64,000 nucleotides of DNA from Candidatus Omnitrophota bacterium (GCA_020057115.1 JAGVGJ010000002.1:857-64856); one strand, 5' to 3'. Shown: positions 12,415-64,000, numbered from the stretch's first letter. Made by a program: numbers and translations. Notes: generated by a model not told the origin, from the sequence alone.

Positions 12415-12975
12415 ATGAAAAAATCAGAGCTATCGCCATGCCCGGCGCTATATCCGGTACCGGTCGCGCTAGTAAGCTCGATCGATAAAGCAACCGGCAA
12501 AATCAACATAATAACGATCGCATGGTGCGGCAACATATGCTCAGACCCTCCCATGGTCAGCATATCGATAAGGCCGAGCCGTCTATCCCACAGCATCATA
12601 AGCCAGACCAAAGACTTCGTGATAAATATTCCCACAAGCGATATGGCGAGGAAGGTAGATCTCTGCGGGGTCAAGTCCGGCAGGGACACCGATAAGTTCA
12701 AGGCATGCTCGCTCACGCCCGCGGCTTCGTTAAAAATATCCTCTCCCGCAATAAAAGAATGCCCGGTAAATATCGAGTGCGCGCTAAAAAGCGTGATCAA
12801 GCTCGGTACCCATGACATGTTCATAGGCGAGGTCCTTACGGTGCGCGCGGACGAGAGCATCATGGGCGAGAACGGCGCCATAGACTACGCCAAAGCAAGG
12901 CCGTTTACATACAACCAGGGCGAATACTGGGACCTCGGCAAAAATATCGGAAGCCACGGTTTTTCCTCCCGCTAA
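12415..12975 (+). CDS. Flavin reductase-like FMN-binding domain protein.
   Basis: PVPVALVSS...INIITIAW is the typical flavin_reduct family core. Confidence 0.6.
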   Translation: MKKSELSPCPALYPVPVALVSSIDKATGKINIITIAWCGNICSDPPMVSISIRPSRLSHSIISQTKDFVINIPTSDMARKVDLCGVKSGRDTDKFKACSLTPAASLKISSPAIKECPVNIECALKSVIKLGTHDMFIGEVLTVRADESIMGENGAIDYAKARPFTYNQGEYWDLGKNIGSHGFSSR

Positions 12976-13022
12976 ACCATCCTTTTGAGTTTTATCCGGA
13001 ACTGTGATACAATATACCCACA

Positions 13023-13373
13023 ATGCAAAAAGACGACTGCATCTTCTGCAAGATAGCCGCTAAGAAGATACCTTCGAAGGCTGTATATGAGGACGACGAG
13101 ATAGTCGCGTTCGAGGACATAAATCCCCAGGCGCCGGTCCATATCGTCGTTATCTCAAAGAACCATATTGAGAAGCTGTCGGATCTCGCCGAAAAAGACT
13201 CTCAGCTTGCAGGCAGGATGGTCATGGCGGCTAAGAATATCGCTAAGGAGAACGGCATACAGGAGTCGGGTTATCGTATTGTCATGAACTGCAATAAAGA
13301 CGGCGGGCAGGCCGTATTTCACCTGCACCTGCACCTGTTGGGCGGCAGGGCGATGAAGTGGCCTCCCGGATAA
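13023..13373 (+). CDS. HIT (histidine triad) family nucleotide hydrolase.
   Basis: HLHLHLLGG histidine-triad motif. Confidence 0.8.
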   Translation: MQKDDCIFCKIAAKKIPSKAVYEDDEIVAFEDINPQAPVHIVVISKNHIEKLSDLAEKDSQLAGRMVMAAKNIAKENGIQESGYRIVMNCNKDGGQAVFHLHLHLLGGRAMKWPPG

Positions 13374-56468: not shown

Positions 56469-57734
56469 ATGGAGCTCCTTGTTTGCGATAGCAAGAATCG
56501 CATATACCCAATAAAACATCTTGAGCCGGCCGGTATGGAAGCCGGCCATTTTTTTCGGCTAGATACAAAAGACCTCATCAAATTACCCCGCGGAAGCCAG
56601 CTATTCACCCTTCCTGATAGGCGACCTGTAGGGTATGATCCTTCAAGCAAAAGCTTTGTCGCGCCTGAAGAAAAACTTTTTGCCGTAGGAGCATTCGTCT
56701 CGCCCGGCCACACGACAACGCATTCAGCTGCTTATATGGAACTGGACAAGCCGAAGCTATTGCCGCTATTCTCGTACGCAGCCGTTGCCATACATAAAGG
56801 CAAATATTATACAGCCGCTATAAAGGTAGACGACGATACCCGCCATGACTGCACCTTGATAGATATAGCTAAGGTTAAAATTGGCGTAAAGGCCCTTCGC
56901 AAGAAATTCCCGAAGAACAGGCTTGTCCGCCACCTTGAAGATTGCGCTCTTAAATACGGATGCGCCGGAGCACAGAACTTTTTTTTAGGCAAGCATGAAG
57001 GGCCGCTGCCATCATCACCGTATTGTAATGCGGTCTGTCTCGGATGCATATCTTACCAGCCGCGCAAGCTATGTTCCGAGACCCAGCCTAGGATAAAATT
57101 CATCCCAGAACCTCAGGAGATAGCCGAGATCGCATTATTCCATATGGATAGGGTGAAGGACACCATTGTGAGCTTCGGCCAGGGTTGCGACGGCGAGCCT
57201 CTTATCGTGGGTGATGTGCTGGTGGAAGCGGTAAAGCTGATCCGGGCAAAAAGATCCGATAATATGATCAATGTGAACACCAATGGCTCGAGGCCTGATA
57301 TTGTTTCTCGGCTTTTCGACGCAGGTCTTGATTCCATTCGGGTCAGCATGAACAGCGCAAGGATCGAATACTACTCAAGATATTATAAGCCCATAGGTTA
57401 TGCATTCCACGATGTCCTTGCCTCTATAAAGATAGCAAAGAAGAAGGGCGGGTTCGTTTCGCTGAATTACCTTACAATGCCCGGATTCACTGATACCGAG
57501 CCTGAGCTAGCGGCAGTCTCGAAACTAATAGAGAAATATCACATCGACATGATCCAGTGGCGCAACTTAAACTATGACCCGATGGAATATTTTAAAGAGA
57601 TAGATATCGCAGTCGACCGCTCCGATATCCTTGGCGTACGCAGCATGATGCAGTCCCTGGAAAAACGCTTCCCAAAGCTGATCTTCGGCTATTTCAATCC
57701 AAGTCGTGGAAAAATAAGGGCCGTTGTCGATTAA
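56469..57734 (+). CDS. Radical SAM enzyme with an N-terminal domain of about 190 aa of unknown function.
   Basis: CNAVCLGC CxxxCxxC motif at about residue 195, followed by a TIM-barrel-like radical SAM core. Confidence 0.5.
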   Translation: MELLVCDSKNRIYPIKHLEPAGMEAGHFFRLDTKDLIKLPRGSQLFTLPDRRPVGYDPSSKSFVAPEEKLFAVGAFVSPGHTTTHSAAYMELDKPKLLPLFSYAAVAIHKGKYYTAAIKVDDDTRHDCTLIDIAKVKIGVKALRKKFPKNRLVRHLEDCALKYGCAGAQNFFLGKHEGPLPSSPYCNAVCLGCISYQPRKLCSETQPRIKFIPEPQEIAEIALFHMDRVKDTIVSFGQGCDGEPLIVGDVLVEAVKLIRAKRSDNMINVNTNGSRPDIVSRLFDAGLDSIRVSMNSARIEYYSRYYKPIGYAFHDVLASIKIAKKKGGFVSLNYLTMPGFTDTEPELAAVSKLIEKYHIDMIQWRNLNYDPMEYFKEIDIAVDRSDILGVRSMMQSLEKRFPKLIFGYFNPSRGKIRAVVD

Positions 57735-57962
57735 GTCTCTCACGAGATAAGGAGATGTCTTCCTCAAGCCACTCCACGCCAAGCATCTTCTCCTCATTCG
57801 AATATTCCTTTTATAGAGGCACTGTCCCTCTCGGGGCGGGCCAGTGCCCTTGGCAAGGCGAATATCCTCACTCGTCGTTCACCAACCATGTCTCCCTCTG
57901 GGGTAGACATGGCTACAAGTCAATATCAATAGCCACTCTCGCCTTCGACGAGTGAGATTTTC

Positions 57963-58166
57963 CTCATATTGTAGGCGCGGACCGTTAGGGTGGGTTTGGA
58001 ACGGCCTTGTAAAATTTCGATCCCTTAAGCCGATACAGCAAGGCCGAACAAACCTGTCAATAGTTCTTCCTTATAGTCCGGGTTGGTCGGCCATCGAAAT
58101 TTTACGGAGCGAGCGAGGATGGCTAATCCGAGCGAGCGTCCGCGACAGACCCACCCTAACGGTCCG
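57963..58166. repeat. Palindromic MITE-like or structured-RNA element of about 200 nt with 18-bp perfect terminal inverted repeats (CGGACCGTTAGGGTGGGT ... ACCCACCCTAACGGTCCG) and nested internal inverted repeats.
   Basis: Inner IR GTAAAATTTCGAT / ATCGAAATTTTAC and GGCCGAACAAACC / GGTTGGTCGGCC. A direct repeat CGAGCGAGCG x2 lies in the 3' arm. Additional flanking IRs pair 57872 with 57946. Confidence 0.5.
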
Positions 58167-58286
58167 ACAGCCTCATGGAGAGGAATATTTGAATGAGGAT
58201 CAGGCATCCTTGCAACGAACTATTGACATCATCCCTAAAAAGCGGTATACTTGTTATGAACATATGTTCATAACATAGGAGCCATC

Positions 58287-58592
58287 TTGAGGCCGAAAAA
58301 GACTAGATCCATAAGCTGCATGCCGGGAGAACGGTGCTTTAAGCCGCTCTGCAAACCATTAAATAAAGTAGAGTCGGTATTTCTAACCCTGGACGAATTT
58401 GAAGCATTGAGGCTTGCTGATCTTGAAGAGATGAAGCAGGTAGATGCGGCAAAAATGCTTAATATCTCAAGGCCGACATTCTCGCGCATCGTAGGGTCAG
58501 CGCGTAAAAAGATAGCGGACGGCCTGGTCAACATCAAGGCCATAAGGATCGAGGGCGGCTGCTGCAAGATCTCAAGGAGAGTAAGGCGATGA
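58287..58592 (+). CDS. DUF134/UPF0251 family putative DNA-binding protein, TTG start.
   Basis: N-terminal Cys-rich motif (CMPGERCFKP), LTLDEFEALRLADLEEM..ISRPTFSRI..ARKKIADGLVNIKAIRIEGG. Confidence 0.55.
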   Translation: MRPKKTRSISCMPGERCFKPLCKPLNKVESVFLTLDEFEALRLADLEEMKQVDAAKMLNISRPTFSRIVGSARKKIADGLVNIKAIRIEGGCCKISRRVRR

Positions 58593-59761
58593 AAGAATGG
58601 AAGAAATTTCTTTATGTTGTCGCGATATTCTTAGGTTGTTTCTATCTGCCTGTCGAAAACCTGCGGTTCTCCAATGCTATCTTTGAGGCGCTTGCCCTCG
58701 TAAAGTGGTATGCCCGGGAGCATGTATTATTATGCCTTGTCCCGGCATTTTTTATTGCCGGAGCCATATCCGTATTTGTAAGCCAGGCGTCGATCATAAA
58801 ATATTTCGGCGCCAAGGCGAACAAAGTCCTTTCTTACAGTGTTGCCTCCATATCCGGAACCATCCTGGCGGTCTGTTCCTGCACGGTTTTGCCTTTATTC
58901 TCCGGTATATATAAAAGAGGTGCCGGGCTTGGGCCTGCGATAGCTTTCCTTTATTCAGGACCTGCTATCAATGTCCTTGCCATCATCCTTACCGCGCGCA
59001 TCCTTGGCTGGCAGCTTGGACTGGCAAGGGCGATAGGCGCGATTGTATTTAGCGTAGTGATAGGGCTCGCCATGCACCTCATATTCTTAAAAGGGGAGAG
59101 GGAGCGTCATGTTAATGGCAACTTCGACATAGAAGATGTAAAAGAAGCGCGCCCTCTGGGTAAGACCGCCGCCTACTTCACATCCCTTGTCGCGATACTT
59201 GTATTTGCGAACTGGGGCAAGCCACTCGAAGGCGATCACGGTCTATGGAGCTTGATATATGCGCTTAAATGGTGGATCACAGGTTTTTCCTTCGCCGGCC
59301 TCATCATCATGCTGTTCAAATGGTTCAAAAAAGATGAATTAAAAGAGTGGGCCGCGGTTTCATGGGGATTTGCCTTACAGATACTGCCGCTTTTACTCGG
59401 CGGCGTACTCGTCTCCGGATTCCTGCTAGGCAGGGTCGGGCATGAAGGGATAATACCTTCAAGGTTCATTACGATGCTTGTCGGCGGAAACTCATTATGG
59501 GCGAACTTTTTCTCGTCGATCGTGGCGGCATTCATGTATTTTGCAACACTGACCGAAGTACCCATACTTCAAGGGCTGATGAACTCAGGTATGGGTAAAG
59601 GGCCTGCCTTAGCGCTTCTTCTTGCGGGGCCTGCGTTAAGCCTTCCAAGCATGCTGGTCCTCCGCAGTATCATTGGGACAAAAAAAACTGTCGTCTATGT
59701 AAGCCTGGTAATCATCATGGCTACGATCAGCGGGATGTTCTTTGGGTGGATCGTTAAATAA
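58589..59761 (+). CDS. DUF318 (YraQ-like) permease.
   Basis: CSCTVLPLF...GAGLGPAIAFLYSGPAINV is the DUF318 hallmark. About 10 TM helices. Confidence 0.6.
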   Translation: MKEWKKFLYVVAIFLGCFYLPVENLRFSNAIFEALALVKWYAREHVLLCLVPAFFIAGAISVFVSQASIIKYFGAKANKVLSYSVASISGTILAVCSCTVLPLFSGIYKRGAGLGPAIAFLYSGPAINVLAIILTARILGWQLGLARAIGAIVFSVVIGLAMHLIFLKGERERHVNGNFDIEDVKEARPLGKTAAYFTSLVAILVFANWGKPLEGDHGLWSLIYALKWWITGFSFAGLIIMLFKWFKKDELKEWAAVSWGFALQILPLLLGGVLVSGFLLGRVGHEGIIPSRFITMLVGGNSLWANFFSSIVAAFMYFATLTEVPILQGLMNSGMGKGPALALLLAGPALSLPSMLVLRSIIGTKKTVVYVSLVIIMATISGMFFGWIVK

Positions 59762-60548
59762 AACAGGGGAGCATATGAAGAAAAAAGAAAAAGTTATCAA
59801 ACAGCATGTAAAAGAAGGCTATGCAAAGATAGCGCTACAAGGAGGCTCGTGTTGTCCTGGATCATCTTGTTGCGGAAGCTCAAGCCTTGCTCAAGATATA
59901 AGCAAGGCCGTTGGCTACACCGACCGAGAGATGAAGACTGTTCCTGAAGGAGCCAATCTGGGCCTTGGCTGCGGAAACCCGGTCGCGATCGCTTCCTTAA
60001 AAGAAGGCGAAACGGTCCTTGATCTGGGCGCCGGCGCGGGGTTTGATGCATTTTTGGCTGCCGCCAAAGTAGGTAAAAGCGGGAAAGTGATCGGCGTAGA
60101 TATGACCCCCGAAATGATCGACCGTGCCAGAAAAAACGCCCTTAAAGCCGACTACGCCAATGTAGAATTTAAATTAGGCGATATAGAGAATTTGCCCATA
60201 GAAGATAATTCTATTGATGTGGTCATATCAAATTGCGTTATCAATCTTTCGCCTGACAAGAAACGAGCATTCAAGGAAGCATTCCGTGTCTTGAAGTCCG
60301 GTGGAAGGCTCATGGTGTCGGACCTGGTTCTTATGAAAGACTTACCTGATGTTACAAAGAGATCGATCGAGGCTTATGTGGGTTGCATTGCCGGCGCCTC
60401 CGGGAGAGAGGATTATATCAATTTTATCAAGGAAGCTGGTTTTAAAGATATAAAAATTATAAGCCAGGATAAATATCCTGTCGAAGCCGTGGCTGATACT
60501 TCGGCCGTGGTAAGCGTCAAGATATATGCTATTAAACCCGAGGATTAA
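59742..60548 (+). CDS. arsM: Arsenite S-adenosylmethionine methyltransferase.
   Basis: SAM motif VLDLGAGAGFD. Conserved Cys positions: N-terminal CC pairs, NCVINL, GCIAGA. Confidence 0.7.
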   Translation: MGGSLNKTGEHMKKKEKVIKQHVKEGYAKIALQGGSCCPGSSCCGSSSLAQDISKAVGYTDREMKTVPEGANLGLGCGNPVAIASLKEGETVLDLGAGAGFDAFLAAAKVGKSGKVIGVDMTPEMIDRARKNALKADYANVEFKLGDIENLPIEDNSIDVVISNCVINLSPDKKRAFKEAFRVLKSGGRLMVSDLVLMKDLPDVTKRSIEAYVGCIAGASGREDYINFIKEAGFKDIKIISQDKYPVEAVADTSAVVSVKIYAIKPED

Positions 60549-60557
60549 AGGAGATAT

Positions 60558-60794
60558 ATGAAAATTGAGATCCTGGGTATGGGATGCCCGAAATGCAAAA
60601 AGTTATATGAAAATGCTCAGACCGCTGCGAAAGAGCTGAATATCGCGGCAGATATCGTTAAAGTAGCTGACATCGACAAGATCACCGGATACGGCGTAAT
60701 GATGACGCCTGCCTTGGCTATTGACGGTACAGTTGTTTCATCTGGCAAATTGTTGAACAAAGACGAGATAATCAAGATCATCTCTAAGCGTTAA
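60558..60794 (+). CDS. Small thioredoxin-fold redox-active disulfide protein.
   Basis: 78 aa with a GCPKC CxxC motif. This type of protein commonly accompanies DUF318 permeases. Confidence 0.6.
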   Translation: MKIEILGMGCPKCKKLYENAQTAAKELNIAADIVKVADIDKITGYGVMMTPALAIDGTVVSSGKLLNKDEIIKIISKR

Positions 60795-60803
60795 GGAGCT
60801 CTT

Positions 60804-61238
60804 ATGCGTAAAAAACTTTTTACATTACTTTTATCGGTTCTGCTATTGTGCGGTTTCGCGCTGCCGGTGCGCTCAGGCCAAGGCGCAGACGCAAAACCCC
60901 AGAATAAGGTTATCGCCTATTATTTCCACGGCGATTTCCGATGCCCTACATGCTTCAAGATGGAGCAACACTCGAGGGGGGCTGTGGAAAAATATTTTAA
61001 AGATGAACTGGCTTCCGGGAAAGTAGTATTCAGCGCGGTAAATACGGACGAAAAAGCGAATAAGCATTTCGTGCGCGACTACGGACTTTATGCGAAATCC
61101 CTCATAATATCCCTGGTTAAGGACGGAAAGGAAGTCAGATCAAAGAACCTTACTAAGATATGGGAATATGCCTGGGATGAACGGGAATTCTACGATTATG
61201 TCAAAACGGAAGTTGAAAGCTATTTGAAAGAACTTTAA
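60804..61238 (+). CDS. Secreted CxxC (CPTC) thioredoxin-like protein.
   Basis: Signal peptide plus a CPTC motif. Confidence 0.4.
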   Translation: MRKKLFTLLLSVLLLCGFALPVRSGQGADAKPQNKVIAYYFHGDFRCPTCFKMEQHSRGAVEKYFKDELASGKVVFSAVNTDEKANKHFVRDYGLYAKSLIISLVKDGKEVRSKNLTKIWEYAWDEREFYDYVKTEVESYLKEL

Positions 61239-61924
61239 TGGATAATCTGCTGGTAGGCATCCTCTCCGCGCTATGGCTTGGCATATTGACGTCGATAAGC
61301 CCGTGCCCTTTAGCCACTAATATAGCCGCGATCTCATTTATATCAAAAAAGATAATTCACCCCAAAATGGTATTTATTTCAGGCCTTGCTTATACCCTAG
61401 GCAGGATGGCATCCTACGCGCTGTTAGGCTTTATCATCATAGGCTCGCTTTTAAGCGTACCGGCAGCAGCAAATTTCCTGCAGAAATACATGAACAAGGC
61501 GATAGGCCCTATGCTGATATTCACGGGTCTCTTCTTGCTGGACATTATTAAATTTAGCATACCTGCTTTTTCGCTCTCCGAAAGACATCATCATAAACTC
61601 GCCGAATCAGGTGCGGGCGGAGCATTTCTATTAGGACTGATATTCGCCCTGACCTTCTGCCCGATCTCAGCTGCGCTATTTTTTGGCAGCTTAATACCGC
61701 TTGCGCTTAATCATAAATTGGGGGCGATATTACCGTTTATATACGGTTTTGGAACAGGCTTACCGGTTTTGCTATTCGCCGTTTTGATAGCCCTTGGAGT
61801 GGCATCGCTTAAGCATTGGTTCCATCGCCTGACAAGACTGGAATATTACACGAAAAAGATCACTGGTGCTATCTTTATAGCGGTTGGAATATATTACATT
61901 TTCTCATATTTGATATATCTCTAG
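61238..61924 (+). CDS. DsbD/CcdA-like thiol-disulfide transfer membrane protein.
   Basis: SISPCPLATN motif in TM1. Six or seven TM helices. Confidence 0.4.
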   Translation: MDNLLVGILSALWLGILTSISPCPLATNIAAISFISKKIIHPKMVFISGLAYTLGRMASYALLGFIIIGSLLSVPAAANFLQKYMNKAIGPMLIFTGLFLLDIIKFSIPAFSLSERHHHKLAESGAGGAFLLGLIFALTFCPISAALFFGSLIPLALNHKLGAILPFIYGFGTGLPVLLFAVLIALGVASLKHWFHRLTRLEYYTKKITGAIFIAVGIYYIFSYLIYL

Positions 61925-61951
61925 TAGACCGGAAAGGAGCCGATCTGCCTT

Positions 61952-62116
61952 ATGGAAGAAGAGAAGGAAACTATTGCATTAAGCAAAGAACAGATATTTG
62001 AGCTTGTCCAGATAGTTTTTGATAATGACAAAGACGCTGCTTTAAAGTTCCTGGAGTATAATATATACAAACCTATTCAAAGACGAAAAGAAGCTAAATG
62101 TAAAAAAGAAGTTTAG
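61952..62116 (+). CDS. Small hypothetical ORF (54 aa) with an RBS.
   Basis: GGAAAGGAG RBS about 12 nt upstream. Not in the ORF track because of the length cutoff. No homology recognised. Confidence 0.25.
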   Translation: MEEEKETIALSKEQIFELVQIVFDNDKDAALKFLEYNIYKPIQRRKEAKCKKEV

Positions 62117-62138
62117 GAATAATTCAAGAGGTGGATAA

Positions 62139-63209
62139 ATGCAATATACCAAACACGAAGCATCGGAATTAAAACGTGAACTATCTTTATTGGACAAACT
62201 CCTTACGCCTCTTATATTCATTGCGATGGGGGTGGGAATAGCTTTAGGATATTTTGCCCCAGGCGCAACCAAGGTCATAGCTGACATGCAGGTCGGCACG
62301 ACCTCCATACCGATAGCCATCGGTCTTATCCTCATGATGTATCCGCCGCTCGCGAAGGTGAAATACGAAGAGATAGGGAAGGTATTCAATAAGCCGAAAC
62401 TGCTGATCCTTTCCCTTGTGCAGAACTGGATAGTCGGGCCCGTCGTAATGTTTATTCTGGCCATCATATTTCTTCGGCATTATCCTGAATATATGATAGG
62501 CGTTATCCTGGTGGGACTCGCCAGGTGTATCGCAATGGTCATAGTCTGGAATGAGCTTGCCGAAGGCGACAGGGAATTTGCCATAGGGCTCGTGGCATTT
62601 AACGCGGTATTTCAAGTCCTATTTTACGCGGCATACATCTATATATTCATCACAGTCGGACTTAACTGGCTAGGGCTGGTTAAAGGCCTGAACCTGAATA
62701 TTTCCATGGTCGAAGCCGCCAAGACCGTCTTTTTCTACTTAGGGATACCATTCCTTGCAGGAGTTATCACCCGCGTCAGCCTGATGAAGCTAAAAGGGAA
62801 GGTGTGGTATGAGGATATTTTCATCCCGAAGATAAGCCCGATCACGCTCATCGCGCTTTTATTTACCATCATCGTCATGTTCTCGCTTAAAGGGCAATAT
62901 ATCATACAGCAGCCTTTTGATGTCGTAAGGATCGCCATCCCGCTTGCCATATATTTCTTCCTGATGTGGTTCGCGACATTCTTCATCGCCAGAAAGATGG
63001 GTATTAATTATGCGCAGACAACCGCAACCTCCTTCACCGCGGCAAGCAATGATTTCGAGCTCGCGATAGCGGTCGCTGTCGCTATCTTCGGGATCAGCTC
63101 TAACCAGGCATTTGCGACTGTCGTCGGGCCGTTGATAGAAGTCCCGGCGCTCATCATTCTTGTAAACGTCGCTTTGAGATTCAAGAGGGGCGGCCTTTGG
63201 AAAAGATAA
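62139..63209 (+). CDS. acr3: Arsenite efflux transporter, ACR3 family.
   Basis: MMYPPLAKV and [13 protein letters not shown] motifs. Ten TM helices. Confidence 0.85.
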
Positions 63210-63874
63210 TATTCTCATGGTCGAGCGGCAAGGATAGCGCGATGGCGCTATATGAGGCTAAGCAGAGCGGAAAGTATGCGATCGATTGCCTGCTTACGAC
63301 TGTCACGGAAGGATATGACAGAATAAGCATGCACGGCGTAAGACGAGAACTCCTTGAGGCGCAAGTAGAGTCGATAGGCCTGCCTCTTGAAAAGATATTC
63401 ATTTCCAAAAAGAGCTCAAGCGATGAATACGAGTCGAAGATGCGGGAATTCCTTGAAAGAAAGATCTCCGAAGGCGTGAAGGCAGTAGCATTCGGAGACA
63501 TATTCCTGGAGGACCTAAAAAAGTATCGCGAAGACAAACTCGCTCAGGTTAATATGAAGGCTCTATTCCCGATATGGAAAAGGGATACGACAGAGCTTGC
63601 AGGGAAGTTCATCGAGCTCGGCTTCAAGACGATAATAACTTGCGTGGATACAAAAGTCCTGGATAAGAGCTTTGCCGGCCGCCTCTATGATGAGTCCTTT
63701 CTAAAGGACCTTCCTAAGAATATAGATCCGTGCGGCGAAAATGGCGAATTCCATTCATTCTGTTTCAACGGCCAGATATTCGGCACGCCTATCAAGTTCA
63801 CAATAGGCGATTCGGTATTGCGCGACAATAGATTCCAATATCAGGACTTGATAGCACCCTCTCGGGATGGGTAA
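63197..63874 (+). CDS. PP-loop ATP pyrophosphatase of the MJ0570/Dph6-like (ATP_bind_4) family.
   Basis: SGKDS PP-loop at the N-terminus. Conserved [13 protein letters not shown]-terminal block. Confidence 0.65.
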
Positions 63875-63987
63875 GGTGTCTTTCCGCGAACATTCCATTC
63901 CCAGAGGGAATGTCATTCGGAAGGTCGCGATTTTCGTTGAAAAATCGCGACCTTCGATGTCGCTCCAAGACACCTTACCCATCCCTC
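63867..63987. repeat. 22-bp perfect inverted repeat (CTCGGGATGGGTAAGGTGTCTT / AAGACACCTTACCCATCCCTCGG) enclosing two internal hairpins.
   Basis: Inner hairpins CATTCCC/GGGAATG and AAGGTCGCGATTTTC/GAAAAATCGCGACCTT. The element reaches the window edge. Confidence 0.5.
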
Positions 63988-64000
63988 GGGGGCCCCAGTG

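Follow-up and report, generated by a model that had tools for sequence, protein, structure and literature searches.

A cysteine-rich DUF134 protein as candidate repressor of an ArsR-less arsenic detoxification operon in Candidatus Omnitrophota

Introduction

To our knowledge, the regulation of arsenic genes in bacteria is explained almost entirely by proteins of the ArsR/SmtB family. The sites at which the ArsR proteins of E. coli R773, Acidithiobacillus, and Corynebacterium bind trivalent arsenic, As(III), are built from three cysteines that often include a vicinal pair and that sit on flexible termini. DUF134 (also known as UPF0251) is a domain of unknown function that occurs across anaerobic bacteria and archaea. 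Here, we describe a cluster of arsenic resistance (ars) genes headed by a DUF134 gene in 64,000 nt of DNA from a Candidatus Omnitrophota bacterium (GCA_020057115.1, JAGVGJ010000002.1:857-64856; this whole stretch is called the window below). An earlier note on this DNA had suggested that the DUF134 protein might control the cluster in place of ArsR. Our analysis leads us to propose, with a probability of roughly 0.6, that the cluster is an autoregulated arsenic/organoarsenical detoxification operon of Candidatus Omnitrophota in which the cysteine-rich DUF134 protein would take the role of ArsR as a repressor that is released by arsenicals.

Several parts of this locus have described counterparts. 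An atypical MarR protein encoded next to arsV is a regulator of ars genes that does not belong to the ArsR proteins (bioRxiv 10.1101/2021.08.12.456183). ArsEFG of Shewanella putrefaciens (Chen, Zhang and Rosen 2019, Environ Sci Technol 53:6182, as cited in PMC9144182) is reported to reduce nitroaromatic arsenicals and to export the amino products. The ArsP permease of Campylobacter jejuni is described there as a methylarsenite efflux system (Chen et al. 2015, PMC4681449, as cited in PMC9144182). In the literature that we searched, we found no functional study of DUF134/UPF0251, of its operator, or of a link between this family and ars genes, and nothing on the regulation of ars genes in Omnitrophota.

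Results

The ars unit of the window is one tightly packed operon on the + strand with the DUF134 gene in first position (Table 1). Profile searches of the window's open reading frames (ORFs) against Pfam and NCBIfam, which are the basis of our family assignments, confirmed all nine ORFs of the earlier note together with their order, strand, and coordinates (58287-63874). The start of the ArsP_1 gene overlaps the DUF134 stop by 4 nt, the spacing between genes ranges from small overlaps to 27 nt, and a terminator scan found no + strand terminator-like site in the gaps between the genes of the unit; its sole + strand match, at 58732-58748, lies inside the ArsP_1 coding sequence. The unit contains the arsenite efflux pump (Acr3) of a classical ars operon, but neither ArsR nor ArsC is encoded in the window: jackhmmer searches seeded with ArsR, SmtB, and CadC or with two types of ArsC returned no homologue among the complete window ORFs of at least 40 amino acids (aa), in agreement with what the earlier note had read from the sequence. 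The window covers all but about 1.1 kb of the source contig (65,091 bp).

Ahead of the DUF134 gene lies a sigma-70-type promoter that is one of the two best matches in 57600-64000 (both with 11 of 12 consensus positions, the other on the - strand). It is followed by a perfect 24-bp palindrome, our candidate DUF134 operator, which reads TGTTATGAACAT up to its centre and ATGTTCATAACA beyond it (duplex sequence, TGTTATGAACATATGTTCATAACA) and whose conserved 20-bp core TTATGAACATATGTTCATAA at 58254-58273 starts 2 nt past the -10 hexamer and covers the expected transcription start. With up to three mismatches allowed, the window has no other copy of the palindrome, and 100 shuffles gave none. An operator had been expected among palindromes upstream of 58287, and the site that we found there abuts the -10 box and is conserved, as set out below, at about 2 bits per position.

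Homologues of the DUF134 protein number in the thousands, with identities of 75-100% to the window protein for the 120 closest; all named ones among these are Candidatus Omnitrophota except for one "Verrucomicrobia bacterium" metagenome-assembled genome (MAG). A scan of GTDB with one genome per species gave 269 contigs with close DUF134 relatives, 80 of which were kept; these are Omnitrophota MAGs, some of them labelled "uncultured Planctomycetia" or "Planctomycetales" by their submitters. The 20-bp core recurs at the same position before DUF134 in 81 distinct upstream regions, almost all of which lie on MAG contigs of different Omnitrophota species, with no mismatch in 42, one in 29, two in 7, and three in 3 of them. 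These homologous regions share the same -35/-10 arrangement; the distance from the -10 hexamer to the core is about 2 nt, and that from the end of the core to the DUF134 start is 10-22 nt. Its information content of about 2 bits per column exceeds that of the -35 and -10 boxes, and the spacer and the flanking DNA are not conserved. Across 1.08 Mb of loci together with the window, all 85 sites with at most two mismatches sit directly upstream of a DUF134 gene.

The reverse test set out from the palindrome instead of the protein. An exact-match scan of metagenome contigs gave at least 120 contigs, with 121 sites among the matches listed; together with 87 other loci, 120 contigs with the exact motif make up the 207 related loci referred to below. 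At 89 of the 121 sites among the matches listed, a DUF134 gene starts within 80 nt and points away from the site. About 7 more listed sites have DUF134 at operon-length distance (100-200 nt off or behind a small first gene), about 7 are too near a contig end for judgement, and most of the remaining ones adjoin typical DUF134 partners, i.e., genes for Nitro_FeMo-Co (NifX-like), DUF5320, or similar proteins. Many of the DUF134 proteins found in this way are only 37-55% identical to the window protein, and these divergent genes head operons without arsenic genes that encode NifX-like proteins, DUF5320 proteins, ParA/MinD-Fer4 ATPases, or ARMT1-like proteins, as Pfam annotation confirmed for one locus each of Myxococcota and Ignavibacteriaceae. 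The former has a version of the site with three mismatches, placed between the -35 and -10 boxes. In other phyla, the 20-bp palindrome was seen before DUF134 or its partners in L102, L103, L117, L122, L123, L131, L208, L210, and further loci, where the partners also include genes for an ECF S component, a CusB-like protein, C_GCAxxG_C_C proteins, thioredoxin, and rhodanese. These sites point to a putative family-wide DUF134 regulon of uncharacterised genes.

We considered whether the palindrome might be the site of a different protein (LexA, for instance, or an ArsR from some other place in the genome) or might act as a hairpin in the 5' leader RNA, with DUF134 merely being the first gene behind it, and regard this as improbable. 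Its core GAACATATGTTC equals what we take to be the core of the Gram-positive SOS/LexA box, and the GAAC-N4-GTTC pattern presumably resembles the Cheo box, a likeness that would favour LexA or some other binder. However, the conserved flanks are TTAT/ATAA and not C/G, and no homologue of LexA or RecA was found in the 120 exact-motif contigs, the 87 other loci, or the window, so that an SOS box was rejected. Symmetric double changes of the site in L042, L075, and L081 would preserve a hairpin just as well as an operator, but uncompensated single changes occur, too, and the sequence itself is kept at its high information content across proteins that are only 40% identical, something that a hairpin would not need. 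The expected transcription start moreover falls inside the left arm, and the Myxococcota site between the promoter boxes would not be transcribed as a whole; from this promoter geometry and the conservation of the primary sequence, we judged an RNA hairpin unlikely.

What argues against any other binder is that no gene other than DUF134 is shared by the palindrome sites in their unrelated contexts and phyla, and it is for this reason that we take the palindrome as the cognate operator of the family. The candidate operator and DUF134 were found together by comparison in both directions of the test, and the 20-bp palindrome is very likely a family-wide DUF134 operator. Its position over the expected transcription start or the core promoter speaks for repression and its position before DUF134 itself for autoregulation, so that sequence comparison strongly supports autorepression by DUF134; we infer dimeric binding, repression rather than activation, and the effector that is proposed below. 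An operator variant, TTATGCACATATGT(G/T)CATAA with GCAC replacing GAAC, goes with the exchange P63S (SRPTF to SRSTF) of the DUF134 protein in L075, L080, L081, and L084. Residue 63 is the start of the predicted recognition helix, and this covariation suggests a direct base contact.

When the window proteins were searched against the related loci with tblastn, most loci with enough downstream DNA had DUF134 and, behind it on the same strand, ArsP, sometimes ArsM, then ArsE, ArsF, ArsG, and sometimes Acr3. The synteny of DUF134 with ars genes that the earlier note had considered worth looking for is therefore found in those Omnitrophota loci whose downstream part is long enough. In three contexts with wholly different flanking genes, the conserved block begins at DUF134 with ArsP_1 next, and as the neighbouring genes vary from locus to locus, DUF134 marks where the conserved unit begins. 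In the 45 non-redundant loci that include 6.5 kb or more of sequence downstream, ArsF is present in 36, ArsE in 35, ArsG in 34, Acr3 and the long form of ArsP in 33 each, and ArsM in 22, and the gene order of the window is the commonest arrangement (15 of 45). The first gene after DUF134 mostly encodes an ArsP_1 permease in its long or short form where the downstream DNA suffices, with exceptions that include L017, L029, and L064 (acr3 first), L024 (54-aa gene first), and L128. Loci that were scored as lacking ArsP by BLAST carry a shorter ArsP_1 permease of 317-320 aa; ArsP of Campylobacter jejuni is about 315 aa long. Acr3 comes in two sequence types that both pass the ACR3 equivalog model, and it is followed by an ArsC of the LMW-PTP type in about 11 related loci. 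The minimal units are DUF134-acr3 (L017, L064) and DUF134-acr3-arsC (L029).

Given these data, a chance juxtaposition of separately regulated genes in which DUF134 is an unrelated neighbour appears very improbable to us: nothing beyond the general shuffling of bacterial genes would favour it, whereas two things speak against it: the genes overlap or are at most 27 nt apart with no terminator-like site between them, and their order is kept in dozens of species-level genomes while the flanking genes vary. ArsR itself was recovered by jackhmmer in only 1 of the 207 related loci, L060, where its gene (12785-13147) follows arsG in an operon headed by DUF134 and an acr3 lies another 3.7 kb or so downstream. 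Both regulators can thus co-exist, and they may sense different arsenic species.

The related loci vary in further ways. Two or three DUF134-led operons are found in one Omnitrophota MAG in the cases of JAZDPX (L008/L045/L062) and CAZHIO (L026/L048). L061 (7938 and 11216) has a second, divergent, cysteine-free DUF134 right after arsC and then a C_GCAxxG_C_C protein. A five-cysteine DUF134 operon of L004/L005 (5131-6021) encodes a CDF/ZitB-like exporter instead of arsM, and that of L128 (510-3453) encodes a small ferredoxin, a weakly ArsD-like protein of 111 aa, and a DsbD-like protein. Between DUF134 and the short ArsP_1, L043 (3490-3642), L165 (4679-4864), and L175 (3174-3329) carry ORFs of about 50 aa with a C-terminal CCC motif (...KMEEKAKSSSCCCK...) and no family match.

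The DUF134/UPF0251 family comprises around 4,000 clusters at 50% identity and has no assigned function. The window protein misses the equivalog cut-off of NCBIfam PRK04217 (65.7 vs 115), its best secondary Pfam matches are Sigma70_r4_2 and HTH_29, with no match to HTH_5 or HTH_20, and it is not recovered by the ArsR, SmtB, and CadC jackhmmer seeds. An AlphaFold2 (AF2) monomer model has a confident core at residues 25-90, with beta-strands at 30-34 and 85-89 that enclose helices at 35-46, 51-57, and 62-81, and the helix-turn-helix predicted in it aligns structurally with sigma-70 region 4 and with the B. subtilis DeoR DNA-binding domain. The PDB gave no DUF134 structure and weak helix-turn-helix matches only.

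The N-terminal cysteine motif and helix-turn-helix of this protein, noted previously, are both present: the motif consists of C11, C17, and C22, and to it we add a C-terminal vicinal pair, C92-C93, that the earlier note does not mention. All five cysteines are invariant in 18 close homologues. Further out, among the 150 closest representatives of clusters at 50% identity, 40 lack every one of the five cysteines, 42 have a cysteine only at position 6, and a single one has the full pattern. Five-cysteine DUF134 proteins have at least two ars genes downstream in 65 cases, one in 7, and none by BLAST in 4, as compared to 3, 1, and 11 cases for other DUF134 proteins. The 3 cases with at least two ars genes among the latter are four-cysteine variants of the same clade, and 11 of 12 DUF134 genes outside the five-cysteine clade have no downstream ars gene. 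By comparison, the five-cysteine clade is thus seen to travel with ars genes. The arrangement of its cysteines is compatible, by analogy, with an As(III) site of the ArsR type, and we infer that arsenicals would be sensed through these residues. Both cysteine-bearing termini have pLDDT values below 50 in the AF2 apo monomer, and no cysteine cluster is seen there.

It is possible, though in our view doubtful, that DUF134 is an operator-binding autorepressor that does not sense arsenic at all. Its cysteines would then hold an Fe-S cluster or a metal (Zn, Cd, Cu) or form disulfides, and the operon would respond to thiol, redox, or soft-metal stress at large, with the arsenic genes as just one part of its response. 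The partners behind the same palindrome elsewhere (Nitro_FeMo-Co or NifX-like proteins, DUF5320, ParA/Fer4 ATPases, C_GCAxxG_C_C, thioredoxin, rhodanese) fit such a role, as do the C-terminal CC pair, which also occurs in a non-ars clade, the CDF/ZitB-like exporter in some five-cysteine operons, and the ArsP_1 permease of the window, whose best-scoring NCBIfam models are SaoE and SO_0444 (Cu/Zn-efflux), both below their cut-offs and with no equivalog reached. What favours a sensor of arsenicals is that only the clade at the head of ars genes has the C11/C17/C22 triad, that these genes include the arsenic-specific ArsM, two ACR3 subfamilies, and LMW-PTP-type ArsC, and that units of two or three genes hold nothing besides DUF134 and arsenic genes. 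The As(III) sites of ArsR, moreover, likewise combine vicinal cysteines with a third one.

Several points nevertheless weigh against an arsenic-sensing DUF134 that replaces ArsR. The related operon L060 has an ArsR as well, and an ArsR may be encoded outside the 64-kb window and the 207 loci that the search for ArsR covered. The C-terminal CC pair is shared by a second, non-ars DUF134 clade (Planctomycetota, Myxococcota, Ignavibacteria, Bradymonadales), which combines it with C5/C6, and the DUF134 cysteines could hold an Fe-S cluster or zinc or could sense the redox state. The cysteine pattern is associated with ars genes essentially within a single clade and not through a series of independent events, and the same holds for the covariation of P63S with the operator, which is essentially confined to one clade (4 loci). 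Some five-cysteine operons hold a CDF (ZitB-like) transporter or an ArsP_1 permease alone. Finally, operons of other phyla that have nothing to do with arsenic (NifX-like, DUF5320, Fe-S ATPases) begin with the same operator and a member of the same family; because operator and DUF134 would control non-arsenic genes there, the family does not seem to be intrinsically an arsenic sensor.

The remaining genes of the unit are listed in Table 1. The roles of ArsE, ArsF, and ArsG and of the ArsP_1 permease in this organism are predicted from family membership. The trio, which the earlier note had described as a thioredoxin-like, a CPTC, and a DsbD/CcdA-like protein, is present as stated, though its naming has to be corrected to the ArsE/ArsF/ArsG set; by its sequences, it resembles a relay made up of a thioredoxin-like protein in the cytoplasm, a membrane protein of the CcdA kind, and an exported protein with a CxxC motif. 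The arsM ORF opens at TTG 59742, but its likely start is ATG 59775. The 54-aa ORF, called as a gene by both NCBI and JGI, is a genuine conserved small protein: jackhmmer found 25 members (24 besides the window copy) at varying positions in DUF134-ars operons, e.g., at 6025-6189 of L004 and 502-666 of L024, with the consensus ..KK.I.L.EDDLLKVEQIVIDRDKEGALDFVKEVIKKQIDRENASKMKREGI.

Table 1. Coordinates of the DUF134-led ars unit and of its promoter region in the window.
Feature	Position	Strand	Evidence
Sigma-70-type promoter: TTGACA 58223-58228, 17-nt spacer, TATACT 58246-58251	58223-58251	+	11/12 consensus positions
Candidate DUF134 operator, perfect 24-bp palindrome	58252-58275		Palindrome scan and comparison
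Ribosome-binding site AGGAG, 5 nt before DUF134 TTG start	58277-58281	+	Read from sequence
DUF134/UPF0251 helix-turn-helix protein, 101 aa, TTG start	58287-58592	+	PF02001, 86 bits vs cut-off 27, residues 2-94
ArsP_1-family (DUF318) permease, 390 aa, CSC motif	58589-59761	+	PF03773, 247 bits
ArsM, As(III) S-adenosylmethionine methyltransferase	59775-60548	+	NF008823, 352 bits vs 263
ArsE-type/MTH895 small thioredoxin-like protein, CPKC motif	60558-60794	+	TIGR00412, 102 bits vs 62
ArsF-family protein, N-terminal signal-peptide-like stretch, CPTC motif	60804-61238	+	NF040494, 107 bits vs 60
ArsG-family membrane protein, DsbD/CcdA-like fold	61238-61924	+	NF040495, 281 bits vs 200; PF13386
Conserved 54-aa protein	61952-62116	+	No Pfam or NCBIfam family; jackhmmer members in related operons
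ACR3 arsenite efflux transporter	62139-63209	+	TIGR00832, 444 bits vs 283
Dph6-like PP-loop ATP pyrophosphatase	63197-63874	+	PF01902

The last gene of the cluster fared differently. Given a TTG start at 63197, the PP-loop ATPase overlaps acr3 by 13 nt as previously described, and it is probably co-transcribed with acr3 here. Its membership in the arsenic system did not hold up, since tblastn found a homologue in none of the 207 related loci, and we regard it as a local neighbour; in related loci, the slot in which it sits is used by ArsC or by unrelated genes.

Upstream of the DUF134 promoter, an intergenic stretch of 430 nt with nested inverted repeats (57780-58210) separates it from a radical-SAM gene that ends at 57734. 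Its folding energies are -190 kcal/mol on the + strand (z = -9.0) and -181 kcal/mol on the - strand (z = -7.4), and it has no Rfam match and no second copy in the window or the 207 loci. It could be a remnant resembling a miniature inverted-repeat transposable element (MITE), an insulator or terminator, or an undescribed structured RNA. The window as a whole has no tRNA and no Rfam match at gathering thresholds, and the Rfam matches in 57700-58300 are all at chance level.

Discussion

Control of this ArsR-less ars cluster by its DUF134 protein, first proposed from the window alone, is now supported by synteny, by a conserved palindrome, by the reverse test, and by the presence of ArsR in just one of the 207 loci. 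In the mechanism that we propose, a DUF134 dimer would bind the 20-bp palindrome TTATGAAC-N4-GTTCATAA, whose half-site centres are about one helical turn apart. As the palindrome spans roughly -4 to +16, the bound dimer would block RNA polymerase and thereby repress the genes DUF134-arsP-arsM-arsEFG-orf54-acr3. As(III) and/or methylarsenite would bind to thiolates of C11, C17, and C22 on the N-terminal arm and of C92-C93 just past the last beta-strand, which would free DUF134 from the DNA and derepress the operon.

In a broader picture, to which we would give even odds, DUF134/UPF0251 proteins would be widespread autoregulated repressors that share one nearly universal 20-bp operator and sense their ligands by variable cysteine arms, and the five-cysteine clade of Omnitrophota would serve many species as arsenite/methylarsenite sensor in place of ArsR. 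Another regulator family appears to do the job of ArsR across many species of a little-studied, uncultured phylum, and the DUF134/UPF0251 family gains a first concrete functional handle in the form of a defined candidate operator, its promoter position, and candidate sensory cysteines with a candidate ligand. If our proposal is true, DUF134 would be an arsenic metalloregulator that evolved independently on a scaffold without a winged helix, and surveys based on ArsR would have missed the regulator of ars genes in communities of anoxic groundwater, sediments, and lakes. A compact sensor of 101 aa with a 20-bp operator would also be added to the parts available for arsenic biosensors, and the operator would make it possible to chart, from sequence alone, the DUF134 regulons of other phyla (NifX-like, DUF5320, and Fe-S ATPase genes).

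The locus shares with ars operons under ArsR/SmtB control (arsRBC, arsR-acr3-arsC) a first gene for a small, cysteine-bearing DNA-binding protein, autoregulated there and probably so here, and an operator, here a candidate one, that overlaps the promoter. The controlled genes are also alike, i.e., the Acr3 pump and sometimes ArsC together with ArsM and ArsP, and L029 with DUF134-acr3-arsC is such a case. Unlike these operons, DUF134 belongs to PF02001, has no winged helix but a predicted fold like sigma-70 region 4 or the N-terminal domain of DeoR, and recognises, as we propose, a palindrome that is common to non-arsenic members of its family. Other DUF134/UPF0251 loci (Planctomycetota, Myxococcota, Ignavibacteria, and others) have the same family of protein with the same palindrome directly upstream, but the genes that they would control are unrelated to arsenic and their proteins are without the C11/C17/C22 triad, with cysteines missing from these positions in many of them and C5/C6 plus the C-terminal CC present in one clade.

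Like the system of MarR and arsV, the locus would place ars genes under a regulator from outside ArsR/SmtB, yet that case concerns another protein family in one gene island, whereas the DUF134 arrangement recurs across Omnitrophota (269 contigs, GTDB species representatives). In the comparison with ArsEFG of Shewanella putrefaciens, the likeness is that three window proteins pass the NCBIfam models of ArsE, ArsF, and ArsG and are adjacent in the order E-F-G; the difference is that they come from an uncultured anaerobic phylum and that the trio lies between arsM and acr3. ArsP of Campylobacter jejuni and the window permease share the ArsP_1 family, a CxC motif in a transmembrane segment, and a gene adjoining arsM, but the latter has 390 aa and meets no equivalog model, and related operons use the long or the short form. 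Judged by these comparisons, the ars operon itself appears to be of a known type, and its new part appears to be a regulator from an uncharacterised family in the slot of ArsR.

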